From Fibrobacteria bacterium (GTDB taxonomy: Bacteria; Fibrobacterota; Fibrobacteria; UBA11236), in the NCBI GenBank assembly GCA_035275285.1, contig DATENA010000247.1:241-64240 (forward strand): a DNA stretch of 64,000 nt, written 5' to 3'. The position numbers and the translations under genes are program-made. Under the pieces are notes generated by a model that saw only the letters and a list, made by a program, of their open reading frames with translations, did no database searches and was not told the origin of the DNA. Positions within the stretch are counted from its first letter, which is position 1, and every line of letters starts with the position of its first letter. This document shows positions 6,988 to 46,382 of the stretch, one piece after another.

Positions 6988-7233
6988 ATGGCCAATGAGG
7001 TCAAGGAACGCGTCAGGAAAATAGTCTCCCGGAGCATCGGCGGGGAATACAAGGACAAGCCGATCCCGGACGGCATGAAGCTCATCGGCAACCTGCTCGA
7101 TTCGATGGCGGTGAACAGCCTGATCGTGGCCCTGGAAGAGGATTTCGGCTTCGCGTTCGACGACGAGGATCTCTCGGCCGAAGCCTTCGACACCGTGGAA
7201 TCGCTTTCCGAGCTAGTGCAACGGAAGCTCTAG
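6988..7233 (+). CDS. acyl carrier protein (phosphopantetheine-binding)
   Basis: 81 aa from the ATG at 6988, with an AGGAAGGA RBS. The 4'-PP attachment motif LLDSMAVNSLIVALEEDFG is present. The whole protein is acidic. Confidence 0.85.
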   Translation: MANEVKERVRKIVSRSIGGEYKDKPIPDGMKLIGNLLDSMAVNSLIVALEEDFGFAFDDEDLSAEAFDTVESLSELVQRKL

Positions 7234-15686: not shown

Positions 15687-15694
15687 AGGACGGG

Positions 15695-15767
15695 AGCCGC
15701 CTCCCGGACTCGAACGCGGGATCCGCTCATTGCGAATGAGCCGCTCTGCCGGTTGAGCTAAAGCGGC
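15695..15767 (-). tRNA. tRNA-like sequence (anticodon CGC, nominally Ala), probably degenerate or pseudo-tRNA
   Basis: The minus strand folds as a cloverleaf: acceptor GCCGCTT/AGGCGGC, a perfect D-arm GCTC-AACCGGCA-GAGC, and a perfect anticodon arm GCTCA-TTCGCAA-TGAGC with U33, anticodon CGC and A37. The T-loop is TTCGAGT, but the T-stem CCGCG/CCGGG has two central mismatches. The 3-70 pair is C:G, not the G3:U70 alanine identity element. No CCA is encoded. Coordinates are +/-1. Confidence 0.45.
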
Positions 15768-17222: not shown

Positions 17223-17230
17223 GGCAAATC

Positions 17231-17258
17231 CTCCCATTTGTCAAACATTTGACAAATG
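17231..17258. promoter_or_regulatory. perfect 13-bp inverted repeat with 2-nt spacer (cccatttgtcaaa ca tttgacaaatggg); candidate terminator hairpin or operator
   Basis: It starts 9 nt after the stop of the 15924..17222 gene and contains TGTCAAA/TTTGACA half-sites. A T-run follows about 15 nt downstream. Confidence 0.4.
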
Positions 17259-17366
17259 GGGGAATCCTCAAGTTTTTGGACCCGCGTCGTTGAAAAAGCG
17301 TTTTTAAAGGACAGGTCTGAAATGTCTCAAGCCTTGCAGCCCCCGTTATTCGCCCCCGTCCGCCGG

Positions 17367-41750: not shown

Positions 41751-43121
41751 ATGGTCAAACTGCTGTTGGTGGAAGATAACCTGGGCCTGCGGGAGCAGAT
41801 GAAATGGGCCCTGAACGCCGACTACGAGGTGCTGGAGGCCGAGACCTTGGAGGGCTGCCTGGACGCCCAACGCAAGCAGCGGCCCGGGGTCATCTGCCTG
41901 GACATGGGCCTGGAGAACAAGCCCGAGCGCGGCCTGGAAATCATCGATGCCGTGCTGGGTCAGGACCGCCTGGCCAAAATCATCGTCATCACCTCCAACA
42001 TGAGCCCGGACCTGGGCCGGCGCGCGGTGGAGCGCGGGGCTTTCGATTTCCTGCAGAAGCCGGTGGACATCGACCTGCTCAAGGTCATCCTCGAGCGCGC
42101 CCGGCGGATGATGTCGTTCGAGAAGCCCGCGGCGGAGAATGCCACCGTGGGGCTGCCCAGCGAGGCCGACAACCTGATGATCGGCCGGAGCGAGGCGATG
42201 CGGAAGATCTTCGAGCATATCCGCAAGCTCGCCAAGACCGGCGTGAACGTCTTGCTGACGGGCGAAAGCGGCACCGGCAAGGAATTGTGCGCGCGCGCCA
42301 TCCATTACCACAGCATGCGGCGGAACGAGATCTTCGTGCCCATCAACTGCGGATCGATCCCGGCCAGCCTGATGGAGTCCGAGCTGTTCGGCTACGTGAA
42401 GGGCGCCTTCACGGGCGCCAATACGGACAAGATGGGCCTCATCGAATCCGCCCACAAGGGGACCCTGTTCCTGGACGAAATCGGCGACATGCCCATGGCG
42501 TTGCAGGTCAAGCTGCTGCGCTTCCTCCAGGACCAGAAGCTCCAGCGCGTGGGCGAGACCACCTTCCGCGCCCTCGACGTCCGCATCATCGCGGCCACCA
42601 ACAAGACCAACCTGGCGGAAAAAAACAACACCGCCATGCGCACCGATCTCTACTACCGCCTGAGCGAATTCGAGATCAACCTGCCCCCCTTGCGGGACCG
42701 CAAGGACGATATCCCCCTCATCGCGGCCGCCATCATCGAGGCCAACCGGGCGAAGTTCAACCAGCCCCGGCTCAAGCTCAGCAAGCGGGCGGAGCAGATG
42801 CTGCAGAACTACAGTTGGCCGGGCAACGTGCGCGAGCTGGAGAACAAGCTCAACCGCGCGTCCATCACCTGCGCCGGCCAGATCATCGAGGCCGAGGATC
42901 TGCAGCTCTCGGAGACCTCCTTCACCGTGCTCTCCTACCGGGAGGCGCGCCAGATGTTCGACCGCAACTTCATCCTCAACGCCCTGAAGCAGGCCAAGGG
43001 CAACATCAGCCTGGCCGCCAAGGTCACGGGCCTGACCCGGCCCACCCTGTACGACATGATGAAGAAGAACGGCATCACCGTGCAGATGGAGGCCAAGATG
43101 GAAGAGAAGGGCCCGGACTGA
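41751..43121 (+). CDS. prsR: sigma-54-dependent response regulator PrsR (receiver + AAA+ sigma-54 activator + HTH)
   Basis: Receiver LLVEDN...CLDMGL. AAA+ motifs GESGTGKE and GAFTGA (the sigma-54 contact). C-terminal Fis-type HTH. Confidence 0.9.
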   Translation: MVKLLLVEDNLGLREQMKWALNADYEVLEAETLEGCLDAQRKQRPGVICLDMGLENKPERGLEIIDAVLGQDRLAKIIVITSNMSPDLGRRAVERGAFDFLQKPVDIDLLKVILERARRMMSFEKPAAENATVGLPSEADNLMIGRSEAMRKIFEHIRKLAKTGVNVLLTGESGTGKELCARAIHYHSMRRNEIFVPINCGSIPASLMESELFGYVKGAFTGANTDKMGLIESAHKGTLFLDEIGDMPMALQVKLLRFLQDQKLQRVGETTFRALDVRIIAATNKTNLAEKNNTAMRTDLYYRLSEFEINLPPLRDRKDDIPLIAAAIIEANRAKFNQPRLKLSKRAEQMLQNYSWPGNVRELENKLNRASITCAGQIIEAEDLQLSETSFTVLSYREARQMFDRNFILNALKQAKGNISLAAKVTGLTRPTLYDMMKKNGITVQMEAKMEEKGPD

Positions 43122-43123
43122 CC

Positions 43124-43513
43124 ATGGCCCAGGTCAAAATCTACGGCCTGCGCGAGTCCCTCGCCGCCACCCGGGCGCAATGGTCCGGCCTCATCCATGC
43201 CGCTCTGGTCGAGACCCTGGGTCTCCCCGAGGACAAGAAGTTCCAGCGCTTCATTCCCCTGGACCCCGGCGATTTCATCCATCCCGCGGATCGCACGGAC
43301 GCTTATACCATCGTGGAGATCAGCCTGTTCGAGGGGCGCTCCCCCGGAGCCATCAAGAGCCTGTTGAAAAGGATCATGGCGGACGCGCAAACGGCGCTGG
43401 GCCTCTCCGCCCACGATATCGAGATCACGGTATTCGAATCGCCGCGCCATTGCTGGGGCATCCGCGGCAAGACCGGGGATGAATTGGCGCTGGCCTACAA
43501 GGTGGACGTCTAG
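43124..43513 (+). CDS. tautomerase-family (Tautomerase_2/PptA-like) small protein; no Pro at position 2
   Basis: 129 aa, MAQVKIYGLRESL...YTIVEISLFEGRS...HDIEITVFESPRHCWGIRG. The start is 3 nt after the prsR stop. Family call is from memory. Confidence 0.5.
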   Translation: MAQVKIYGLRESLAATRAQWSGLIHAALVETLGLPEDKKFQRFIPLDPGDFIHPADRTDAYTIVEISLFEGRSPGAIKSLLKRIMADAQTALGLSAHDIEITVFESPRHCWGIRGKTGDELALAYKVDV

Positions 43514-43517
43514 TACT

Positions 43518-43680
43518 AGTGCTGTGACACCCCAATTGCGGGACGAAGGCGGCGAGGGATGGGGGTTCAGGGCAAGGCGTCGCCGACGCAGGAATAGCAG
43601 CGCTATTCCAAGGAGGCGCAACGCAGCCCTGAACCCCCAGACCCGGCGAAAGCGGCCCGCAATTGGGGTGTCACAGCACT
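43518..43680. repeat. 163-bp nested inverted-repeat element (25-bp perfect terminal arms AGTGCTGTGACACCCCAATTGCGGG, 13-bp inner arms, central 8-bp hairpin)
   Basis: The right arm is the exact reverse complement of the left arm. The inner arms gggggttcagggc/gccctgaaccccc and the central ggaatagc-agc-gctattcc hairpin are nested within it. The element precisely fills the gap between two convergent genes. Confidence 0.7.
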
Positions 43681-44935
43681 AGGTCGGGAACAACGAGGGC
43701 CGCCGGAGCGCGGGCCGCACCCCCGTCCAATCGCGGGCCGGTTCCGGCGCCTGGCCTTTCCGCAGCGCGCCATGCTCTTCCAGGATCCCCGCCAGGCAAT
43801 CCAGGAAGGCGTCCTCCCTGCCCATCAGTTCCGCCGTTACCGGAAGGGTGAGGATCTCTTCCGCCACGCGGCGCGCCCCGGGGAAATCCGCTTCCCCGCC
43901 GATCCCTTCCGGAGCGCCGGGAAGCCCGGGCAGTATCTCCGGATACATGCGCGTCACCCCTCCGAAGCGCGCGTTGGCGCCGCGGTACAGGCCTTCGCGC
44001 AAAGTCCGGTCCCGCACCAGCACGGGAAAACGCGTGGGCAAGCCCGCCGCCGCGGACGCGGGGCCGGAAACGGCTTCCCGGTCGCAGGCTCGCAACAGGT
44101 CGCGGTACCCGCCGATCAGCTTCCGGTAGAAATCCCGCCTTTGCAGGTAGGCCTCCAGGCAGGCGGAACCGGGGGAAGGGAACCCCGGGGACATGGCTTC
44201 GAGGGCGAGCGGCGCGTTCCAGACCGTGGCGCCGATGCCCAGGAAAGGCAAACGGGTCAGGGCCCAGAACAGGCGCGGTTGCGAGAGCAGGTTGATGGCC
44301 AGGGCCTTGGGCAGGATGCGCTCATGGCTTACGGGCAAAGCGGCCAGGGCGGAACGGCAGGCGTCCAGGCGGGGACCGGGTCCGGGCAGGCACAAGGCGC
44401 CGCCATGGCCGGCGTTGAGCGCCTTGCCGCGGCCGAAGCTGTAAAAACAGGGGGCATCGTCCTCCGGATCGTGGCGGTGGTCGAAATCCTGGGCGCAATC
44501 GCGCAGAAAGGCCGTATCACCCCACTCGCCCGCGGGCCTGGGCTGCGGCACGGCGAAGAAATGCACCAGCAGCACCGCCAGCAAACCGTGCGCGCGGGCC
44601 CCTTCCAGCGATGCGGCATCATAGGCCAGCGTGCCGGGATCGAGATCCACCAGCACCGGCCGCAGCCCGGCCTGGATCACGGCTTGCGGCACGGAGGGGC
44701 AGCACCAGGCGGGCACGGCGACGGCTTTGAGGCGCGGCCGCAGGGCCGCGAGCCCGCGCAAGGCCACGTACAGAGCCGCGGCGCCGGAGGCGGTGAACAG
44801 GATGCGATCGGCGGCGTAGCCGCTATGGGCCGCGAAGGCGCCGGGAAAATCCTCCCCGCCCGCTTCCAGGAGAAAGGAGGCGGGGACCGCGTTGCCGCTG
44901 GGGGGAAGCGCGAAGCAGGTCATGTAGGGAAACAA
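43679..44935 (-). CDS. DegT/DnrJ/EryC1/StrS-like PLP-dependent aminotransferase-fold protein (second paralog)
   Basis: ASGAAALYVAL...FYSFGRGKALNAGHGGAL segment with a Lys. The alternative start MTCFA is 4 codons in. Confidence 0.5.
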   Translation of the reverse strand: MFPYMTCFALPPSGNAVPASFLLEAGGEDFPGAFAAHSGYAADRILFTASGAAALYVALRGLAALRPRLKAVAVPAWCCPSVPQAVIQAGLRPVLVDLDPGTLAYDAASLEGARAHGLLAVLLVHFFAVPQPRPAGEWGDTAFLRDCAQDFDHRHDPEDDAPCFYSFGRGKALNAGHGGALCLPGPGPRLDACRSALAALPVSHERILPKALAINLLSQPRLFWALTRLPFLGIGATVWNAPLALEAMSPGFPSPGSACLEAYLQRRDFYRKLIGGYRDLLRACDREAVSGPASAAAGLPTRFPVLVRDRTLREGLYRGANARFGGVTRMYPEILPGLPGAPEGIGGEADFPGARRVAEEILTLPVTAELMGREDAFLDCLAGILEEHGALRKGQAPEPARDWTGVRPALRRPSLFPT

Positions 44936-44995: not shown

Positions 44996-45922
44996 TCAGG
45001 GAAGGATGAGGAAGGAACCGGTTTCCAGCACCGACCCGCCCGGGCCCCGCGCCGCCCACAGGTAGCGCGCCGGCCGCAGGAACAGACCCGAATGGTCCCG
45101 GCCGTCCCAGAGCAGCCGGGCCCGGGGTCCCGGAAGTTCCAGGACCCGGGCCCGGGCGCCCAGGGCGGTGAGGATCTCCAGGCTGCCGGGACCGGGCAGA
45201 CCGCTGAGGGAAAGCGGCCCCTGCGCGAGCGGGGAATAGCGGGACGGGAACGCGGAGCGGGCGGCGCCTGCCGCGGGCGCGCCGGGAAGCCGCGGGAGCG
45301 AAGCGGCGGAGCCGGTGGCGGAGACCAGGATCAGCACCGTATCCCGGTCCTCGAACTTGCCGAAGTATTGCGCGCGCACCACCACCCGTCCCGTATCGGC
45401 CTTGCCGCTGCGCGACCGGAAGGCGGCCGTGCGGGAGGCGGGGTCGTAGGCGACGGAAAAGCGCGCGGAATCCGCCAGGGACAGGACCAAGGGCGCGCTG
45501 CCCAGCAGGGGATCGGAATGCGGCGCCAGGACGGCGCGCGTGGCCCCCGTGGCCTGGTCGGGGCGCAGGGTGTCGGGCAGGGACAGCAGGGGATATCCCA
45601 CCTGGGTCTGCGCGGACGGATCGCTGGCGACGCCGCCGGCGTTGATCCCCTTGATGGCGTAGAAGTAGGGGCGGCCCTTTTCCGCCGACAGATCCCGGAA
45701 GCCCAGGGTGTCGCTTCCGGGAGAAGCCGGCACCACGCCCACCGCCTTGGCGGAACCGCCCGCGGAATCGGAGCGGTACACTTCGTAACGGACGATGGAA
45801 TCCTCCGGGGGGCAGGCCAGGAAGCGCACGGAGATGCCTTTGGCGGAAGCGGCCCCGGACAGGCCGGCGAGCAGGATCGCGGCCAGGGAGGCGGAGGCGG
45901 ATTTCCAGGGGAGAAAATACAT
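44996..45922 (-). CDS. secreted hypothetical protein with Fn3/Ig-like segment
   Basis: ATG at 45922 with an AAGGAAGGG RBS. Signal peptide MYFLPWKSASASLAAILLAGLSGAASA. The other-frame ORF 44823..46091 is rejected. Confidence 0.5.
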   Translation of the reverse strand: MYFLPWKSASASLAAILLAGLSGAASAKGISVRFLACPPEDSIVRYEVYRSDSAGGSAKAVGVVPASPGSDTLGFRDLSAEKGRPYFYAIKGINAGGVASDPSAQTQVGYPLLSLPDTLRPDQATGATRAVLAPHSDPLLGSAPLVLSLADSARFSVAYDPASRTAAFRSRSGKADTGRVVVRAQYFGKFEDRDTVLILVSATGSAASLPRLPGAPAAGAARSAFPSRYSPLAQGPLSLSGLPGPGSLEILTALGARARVLELPGPRARLLWDGRDHSGLFLRPARYLWAARGPGGSVLETGSFLILP

Positions 45923-46382
45923 GGCAATACCCTTCCTTGACCGTCCAAGGCCCGAGGCAGCGAGATTCCCCAAAACGCTTCGGGAACCGGAAAAGTCGGG
46001 CGTTCCGTAGGCCGCGGGAGCGGCCTTTCCGCGGAACGCGCGGCCCGGTTTTCAACGCTCGGTAGAGCATTGAAAACCGGGCCGATGACAATGTTATTCT
46101 AGCGCCGCAACCCGGGGATCGCCAGTAAAATTGCCGTCAGTTTTTCCGACAGGGCCCTGCCAGAAAGTCCCCCAGGGCCTTGAAATCGGGGCCGGTGGGC
46201 CGCTTGTCCCGCCCGTCGTCCGGAAACAGATACGGTTTTTTCTTCTTGCACCCTGCCGGACCGTTATGATTTTTAACCCTATAGGCGCGCGGATCCCGCG
46301 GCAATGCGGGGACTCCCGCGGGCCGGGGCGAAGGGATGCGCCGATTCCGGAAAACCAGGCTTTCAGGAGGCGCGAAATCGCT

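Follow-up and report, generated by a model that had tools for sequence, protein, structure and literature searches.

Between the stop codons of two convergent genes of an uncultured bacterium of the Fibrobacteria, we found a palindromic non-coding element that is probably a MITE-like insertion, derived from a transposon and integrated at the TA of a CTAG where the two stops abutted. The window referred to below is the whole stretch of DNA that was analysed, 64,000 nucleotides in length. A MITE-like nature had been one of the options in the original prediction for this gap, and it is now the best supported of them, with CTAG/TA at both flanks, empty orthologous junctions in relatives and no similarity to the local sequence, but the multiple copies expected of such a family were not found in the collections searched. 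The features of the element and its surroundings are as follows.

41751..43121, plus strand: gene of a sigma-54-dependent response regulator of an exosortase/PEP-CTERM locus, with its stop 2 nt before the tautomerase ATG
43124..43513, plus strand: tautomerase-family gene (129 aa, PF14552, identical to HKP97257.1), with the stop TAG at 43511-43513
43516..43519, no strand: left boundary CTAG, outside any stop codon; the TA at 43517-43518 is the left copy of a putative target-site duplication
43519..43542, plus strand: left terminal inverted repeat GTGCTGTGACACCCCAATTGCGGG, 24 nt inside the TA, or 27 nt perfect with CTA
43560..43573, plus strand: inner perfect arm TGGGGGTTCAGGGC, 14 nt, from the repeat finder
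43577..43589, no strand: local 13-nt palindrome GCGTCGCCGACGC, inside the left inner "loop" segment
43589..43611, no strand: apical 23 nt holding the 8-bp hairpin GGAATAGC-AGC-GCTATTCC (43591-43609)
43626..43639, minus strand: partner of the inner arm (GCCCTGAACCCCCA on the plus strand), 14 nt, from the repeat finder
43656..43679, minus strand: right terminal inverted repeat, the exact reverse complement of the left repeat
43679..43682, no strand: right boundary CTAG; the TA at 43680-43681 is the right copy of the putative duplication
43679..44935, minus strand: DegT/DnrJ/EryC1-type aminotransferase gene (PF01041 in homologs), start codon uncertain

When both boundary CTAGs are counted, the whole palindromic unit covers 43516..43682 (167 nt); the element proper is 43519-43679 if TA was duplicated and 43520-43678 if CTAG was duplicated. 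Three nested arm pairs (outer, 14-nt inner and 8-bp apical) are seen both by reading the sequence and with the repeat finder. The terminal arms had been described as 25 nt long, which is right but two bases short, as the outer CT/AG was missed: the repeat finder gives a perfect terminal inverted repeat of 27 nt, CTAGTGCTGTGACACCCCAATTGCGGG, at 43516-43542 / 43656-43682, and the outer pair extends to 30 nt at 97% (43516-43545 / 43653-43682). Both boundaries read CTAG because the complementarity runs on through CT...AG. The second arm pair that had been reported is present with a length of 14 nt instead of 13, and the central 8-bp hairpin was recovered by the repeat finder at its reported place, with arms at 43591-43598 / 43602-43609 and the loop AGC. 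The two halves of the element differ in two 16-17-nt segments. These "loops" were also considered as direct repeats, and only the inner pair was significant (p = 0.0006); this pair is accounted for by the local 13-nt palindrome, which makes the left inner segment similar to its partner in either orientation. With up to 3 mismatches allowed, the 25-mer arm occurs in the window at just these two sites, when shuffled sequences lead us to expect 0.00, and the repeat is the longest inverted repeat within 400 nt across the 64 kb.

Folding of the RNA, which had been proposed as a check, gave very stable structures for both strands: -131.5 kcal/mol (z = -14.8) for the plus strand and -120.1 kcal/mol (z = -13.4) for the minus strand, with 0 of 200 shuffles as good in either case. 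The element (159-167 nt, depending on the boundaries chosen) has no coding capacity; its six frames contain low-complexity peptides only, with no homolog. No family of Rfam 15 was recognised in it, and the only matches were chance hairpin matches to eukaryotic microRNA models at 15-21 bits, compared with thresholds of 62-87.

The two genes belong to a polysaccharide cluster of the exosortase/PEP-CTERM type. One side of the junction is the regulator side, with EpsH, EpsI, a histidine kinase and the sigma-54 response regulator ahead of the tautomerase; converging on it is the DegT-type aminotransferase, behind which relatives have glycosyltransferase, Wzy-type polymerase and flippase genes. The gap between the two convergent genes is 165 nt, so the description of the element as filling it exactly is true save for 2 nt, and its reported end at the minus-strand DegT-like stop was borne out: this TAG is the complement of 43679-43681 and sits within the right CTAG. 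Both reading frames beside the element are intact, and both proteins end at ancestral residues. The tautomerase C-terminus ...AYKVDV* and its stop position are kept in relatives, including L009, L010 and L016, and the DegT-like C-terminus ...RRPSLFPT* matches in position the ...PSLFPT* of the closest relative, L003.

As a separate observation, the DegT-like protein of the window (43679-44935, minus strand) was absent from the protein search results, where its best match had 78% identity, although the tautomerase of the same contig is in that protein collection. The DegT-like frame is intact and of full length when compared with its homologs, and the protein may have been left unannotated or flagged in the source record.

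The boundary motif is rare in this DNA. CTAG occurs 7 times in the 64 kb, at positions 7213, 7230, 39446, 43510, 43516, 43679 and 46099, when 204 occurrences are expected from composition and 38 from a Markov estimate, which corresponds to a 5- to 30-fold depletion. Three of the seven are located at the tautomerase/DegT junction, and two of those three are the ends of the element. The dinucleotide TA is found at about half of its expected count; TTAA and TATA are also low, and GATC and CATG are about two-fold enriched. These counts suggest a strong avoidance of CTAG in this Fibrobacteria lineage, by way of restriction-modification or a repair bias. Most of the remaining CTAGs of the window coincide with stop codons. 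The left CTAG (43516-43519) is in no stop codon, and therefore coding does not account for its presence.

The site that would have existed before the insertion can be reconstructed. When the element and one TA are deleted, the sequence becomes gtCTAGTACTAGgt, a 10-nt palindrome holding two CTAG sites, in which the convergent TAG stops are 2 nt apart and both frames end at their ancestral residues. This predicted empty site resembles the junctions of relatives, which have 8-9 nt between the genes (L009 and L011/L012) or overlapping genes (L013). Target-site duplications had been named as something to look for, and TA (or CTAG) was indeed found on both sides of the element; the motif is palindromic, however, and in one copy it can equally be read as two or four more bases of the inverted repeat. 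For the same reason, a 2-nt duplication and a 4-nt duplication look alike in a single copy. A 6-nt duplication fits at 5 of 6 positions only (aCTAGt against aCTAGg).

Two other hairpins in the window were noted. One, at 46041-46084, has 20-nt arms that are 95% complementary and a 4-nt loop (CGGCCCGGTTTTCAACGCTC ggta GAGCATTGAAAACCGGGCCG); it is intergenic and follows closely on the 5' end of ORF 44996-45973 (minus strand), with the CTAG at 46099 about 15 nt away. The other, at 17228-17265, has 18-nt arms (89%), ATCCTCCCATTTGTCAAA/TTTGACAAATGGGGGAAT, with a 2-nt loop. The DNA around it, at 16-18 kb, has 60% G+C, the lowest value in the first half of the window, and the gene for tRNA-Ala (15693-15767) is about 1.5 kb away.

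Orthologous loci were fetched through homologs of both flanking proteins, which gave 16 loci with about 150 kb of sequence. The element is absent from all eight distinct Fibrobacterota orthologous junctions examined, all of them from species other than that of the window. The spacers between the tautomerase and DegT-like genes are listed here in order of length.

L013: -19 nt, the genes overlap
L009: 8 nt, TAG ctatcgcg CTA
L011 / L012: 9 nt, short
JGI contig: 37 nt
L014 / L015: 66 nt, an ordinary A-tract / hairpin / T-tract terminator (in L014, AAAA-hairpin-TTTT)
L016: about 70 nt, 4-5 tandem copies of a 16-nt unit
L010: 81 nt, a different 75-nt inverted-repeat element
Window: 165 nt, the 163-nt hairpin

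The absence of the hairpin in relatives, together with the conserved C-terminus and stop of the tautomerase, indicates a lineage-specific insertion between ancestral stops, with neither gene damaged. In the L016 locus, where the tautomerase is 79% identical, about 4.5 tandem copies of the 16-nt unit CCAGGGAACGGGCGTT occupy L016:484-570 and run into the probable 3' end of the DegT-like gene. In a subclade comprising L003, L005 and L007 the tautomerase gene is missing, and 24-52 nt separate the aminotransferase from the response regulator, on which it converges directly (L003:11251-11285, L005:11281-11306 and L007:11254-11307, corresponding to 43122-43678 of the window); a small GC hairpin is present at the L003 junction. 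This subclade includes the relative with the most similar DegT protein (78%). The tautomerase, which is present at this position in many other Fibrobacterota, was probably lost there.

We then consider where the sequence of the element came from. Local alignments calibrated with shuffled sequences gave p = 0.82 for the element against the tautomerase flank, p = 0.064 against the aminotransferase flank, and p = 0.37-0.91 against the spacers of all relatives, including the L010 element. An origin by inverted duplication of the DegT 3' coding sequence was tried on account of a 19/23 complementarity between 43644-43666 and 43727-43749, but this is the match with p = 0.064 against the shuffled flank, and it was rejected. 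The element has no significant likeness to its flanks and so did not arise by inverted duplication of the DNA beside it.

The tautomerase/DegT junction of L010 (ENA ERZ25039476, a 163-kb contig) holds a second inverted-repeat element of 75 nt, TTA|GAGTCCCTGACA...TGTTAGGGACTC|TTA, at L010:10395-10474. Its fold has -46.6 kcal/mol (z = -4.8), and its right TTA is the DegT stop codon. A sequence TGACA...AATGCGGGCGAAG... seemed to be common to this element and that of the window, but homology was rejected with p = 0.37-0.64 in shuffle tests. By its sequence, the L010 element seems to be a MITE-like insertion that hit the same stop codon independently. IS1237 of the IS5 family has TTA duplications and repeats starting with GAG (PMC2516522); the L010 element, which reads TTA|GAG..., is alike in both respects and fits IS5 better than the window element does. 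Two unrelated elements on one stop codon are in line with the near confinement of A+T-containing targets to stop codons in a G+C-rich genome.

Searches for further copies were made at several scales. No second copy with 3 or fewer mismatches exists within the 64-kb window, and there is none in the 150 kb of the 16 related loci. An exact 20-mer search of 185,579 species genomes (GTDB), JGI metagenome contigs and IMG/VR returned only two single-arm matches, both inside coding sequence: one within a 1043-aa ORF (L001) and the other at the end of an ORF resembling a group-II intron maturase (L002). We estimate that about one chance 20-mer match is expected in the 596-Gb genome collection. A blastn search of PLSDB gave no copy. 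We also looked for spurious ORFs or C-terminal tails made by other copies, with the six-frame translation compared to 5.8 billion protein clusters and one frame to 1.84 billion representatives; the only match was arginine-rich and of low complexity. These searches covered 64 kb of the source genome, and the public collections were used without that genome's DNA. With the exact 20-mer or blastn, the window, the fetched loci, PLSDB, the species genomes, the metagenome contigs and IMG/VR yielded neither a transposase nor a related autonomous insertion sequence whose ends match.

Several known transposon families offer a comparison. Elements of the IS630 family duplicate TA, and IS630 itself prefers the TA in CTAG; in ISY100, terminal repeats of about 24 bp suffice in cis (PMC2170065). 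The window element resembles MITEs derived from IS630/Tc1-mariner in that each of its ends has a TA embedded in CTAG and the repeats inward of this TA measure 24 nt, but no IS630-family transposase or related end sequence was found for it. MITEPsy1 of Pseudomonas syringae, which is derived from IS5, is a non-coding element of about 100 nt with 18-nt terminal repeats and a 4-nt duplication of CTAG or YTAA (PMC3189936). A CTAG duplication fits the window element as well as TA does, and it would give the ends 5'-TG...CA-3'. The IS5-family ends quoted in PMC3189936 and PMC2516522 start with GG or GA, whereas the window element would start with TGCTG. Elements of the IS481 family, such as ISLxc2, target and duplicate NCTAGN, a motif whose TAG can act as a stop codon (PMC2516522). 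The end of ISLxc2, TGTGCTGCTCAGG, has GTGCTG in common with the end of the window element, a hexamer too short to carry weight, and the 6-nt duplication of this family matches the window element at only 5 of 6 positions.

From these comparisons a mechanism can be proposed for the MITE-like insertion. A DDE transposase encoded elsewhere would bind the 24-27-nt terminal repeats and integrate the element at TA/CTAG, duplicating TA (or CTAG). Candidate families for this transposase would be the IS630/Tc1-mariner type and the IS5 type, and the IS481 type fits less well; the parent element may be a DDE transposase gene (of IS630, IS5 or IS481/IS3 type) bounded by ends like GTGCTGTGACACC.... The target would be the CTAG formed by the abutting convergent stops of the tautomerase and DegT-like genes. 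Because this target is palindromic and the ends of the element rebuild CTAG, the DegT-like TAG stop stays at its ancestral position and the proteins are unaltered; the insertion is tolerated because it lies downstream of both genes. In a genome of 65% G+C, where TA and above all CTAG would be nearly confined to stop codons, such elements may be funnelled to the ends of genes. The complementarity through the whole element, including the second perfect 14-nt arm pair, is not demanded by the transposase model.

Correia elements of Neisseria and ERIC sequences of enterobacteria are small non-coding repeats that form tight hairpins with their terminal repeats paired. In pneumococci, BOX, RUP, SPRITE and IS elements are found in excess between genes that converge; 36 stop codons are supplied by BOX, and in the folds of BOX and RUP the terminal repeats pair with each other (PMC3049150). 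Like the window element, BOX and RUP are small and non-coding with tight hairpins, and they are co-transcribed with genes and sometimes supply a stop codon (PMC3049150). BOX, RUP, Correia and ERIC are, in contrast to the element described here, defined multi-copy families of other phyla, and no sequence relationship between them and the window element was detected. Transcription usually proceeds past the stop codon; if it does so in both genes, each of the two convergent mRNAs would have the element at its 3' end, where it would form an interrupted hairpin of about 80 bp in either orientation. Judging from its position, its folding energy and the behaviour of BOX, RUP and SPRITE, such a hairpin would probably block 3' exonucleases and impede read-through into the opposite gene. 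The present effect of the element is most likely passive.

The REP-like option of the original prediction was dropped. REP/REPIN sequences, mobilised by RAYT, also form hairpins and are intergenic, often between convergent genes, but they consist of two 20-40-nt REPs with a GTAG/CTAC head; the window element, with 163 nt and nested arms, is far longer than a REP and has no such head in its arms.

An alternative that we regard as unlikely is that of a one-off relic, which never transposed in its present form: either the interior of an insertion sequence that had landed here was deleted on the spot, or a break in CTAG took up a piece of palindromic DNA of foreign origin. The element is single-copy in everything searched, as a relic would be, and the CTAG flanks and the foreign sequence fit this explanation equally well. 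Of the source genome, however, the negative copy searches covered the 64 kb of the window only. A nested hairpin that includes a perfect 14-nt arm pair is also not the interior expected after an internal deletion, and perfect ends of 27 nt suggest an element that is recent or maintained.

It is decidedly improbable that the hairpin was instead selected locally, as an immobile bidirectional terminator or RNA-stabilising structure for both convergent operons. Its exact position between two convergent 3' ends and its extreme fold stability on both strands would suit this role, and other hairpins exist at the junction, namely the A-tract/hairpin/T-tract terminator of L014/L015 and the small GC hairpin of L003. 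But there is no T/U tract on either side, and a terminator scan makes no call; the original prediction had already held that this is not a simple intrinsic terminator, and we agree, since neither a T run nor an A run is present at the base (CTAGGTCGGG / CTAGTACTAG) and the stem of about 80 bp is far beyond what a terminator needs. Furthermore, no ancestral spacer or flank is related to the element, the two genes overlap or are 9 nt or less apart in several relatives, and a locally selected hairpin does not account for the CTAG boundaries. An attenuator, which had also been suggested, is excluded by position, with the element 3' of both genes.

We give very little credence to a dedicated structured RNA, i.e. 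an antisense regulator or a small RNA derived from the 3'-UTR, that couples the regulator operon with the polysaccharide-biosynthesis operon. If transcribed through, both transcripts would be fully complementary across the element, and the fold z-scores are very strong, but there is neither an Rfam family nor a promoter-like site, and the element is conserved in no relative, so that covariation is not available. A shared 3'-UTR hairpin would follow from the position of the element if both genes are transcribed to their ends. A candidate sigma-54 promoter in the arms was rejected: TGACACcccaaTTGC, at 43525-43539 (plus strand) and 43659-43673 (minus strand), is one mismatch away from TGGCAC-N5-TTGC, and this mismatch removes the invariant GG. 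One-mismatch matches of this kind number 4 when 4.6 are expected, which is the level of chance. The arm motifs adjoin the gene of a sigma-54 activator, which we judged coincidental.

Two further classes were considered and rejected. An integron attC site was considered because a gene with a hairpin behind it has the look of a cassette, but the R'' RYYYAAC and R' GTTRRRY cores are missing; the sole GTT is in GTTCAGG, which breaks RRR. The tautomerase and the hairpin do not form one mobile cassette either, as the tautomerase is ancestral here in many relatives that have no hairpin, and the attC core motifs are absent.

Finally, an assembly artefact such as a fold-back chimera is hardly credible. 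The source is a short-read MAG, and in a second assembly of the strain the contig ends within the element, whose 23 apical bases are missing. On the other hand, the syntenic genes on both flanks are the correct ones, as in relatives, the arms are not copied from flanking sequence, and the two halves differ in their 16-17-nt segments, unlike a fold-back product. This second assembly, L008 (ENA ERZ27257057), is 100% identical to the window over 10,465 nt and is therefore of the same strain. It carries the left part of the element, with the left 73 nt and a further 46 nt identical in both assemblies. What it omits is exactly the 23 bases at 43589-43611 (caggaatagcagcgctattccaa), with no flanking microhomology (L008:10465-10466), and the contig stops just before the right arm, 25 nt short of the right end of the element. 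The apical gap and the contig break could be a population indel, an assembly error, or the result of low coverage or a repeat-induced break, and we give the break no weight as evidence. As the element is found in two assemblies, it is no artefact of one assembler. In practice, it marks a spot that breaks short-read assemblies and could lead gene callers to place 3' ends wrongly.

A broader reading, which we put forward only as a speculation and consider quite unlikely, is that abutting convergent stops in CTAG- and TA-depleted Fibrobacteria trap hairpin-forming mobile elements, which are then kept as bidirectional insulators or terminators between sigma-54 regulatory and polysaccharide-biosynthesis operons. 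If true, it would account for the variety at this one junction, which in different lineages is filled by two unrelated inverted-repeat elements, an ordinary terminator and a tandem repeat. The MITE-like insertion itself is an element of an ordinary kind and a tidy example of it, instructive but unsurprising to a specialist, and it does not change the understanding of any pathway. In a full-text literature search, no description of MITEs in Fibrobacteres surfaced (one paper mentioning both terms was left aside). If its mobility is confirmed, this would be the first MITE-type element described for this uncultured, high-G+C Fibrobacteria lineage. The case illustrates how strong avoidance of CTAG may restrict target-specific transposons to stop codons, so that the gaps between convergent genes are filled and the genes are left unharmed.
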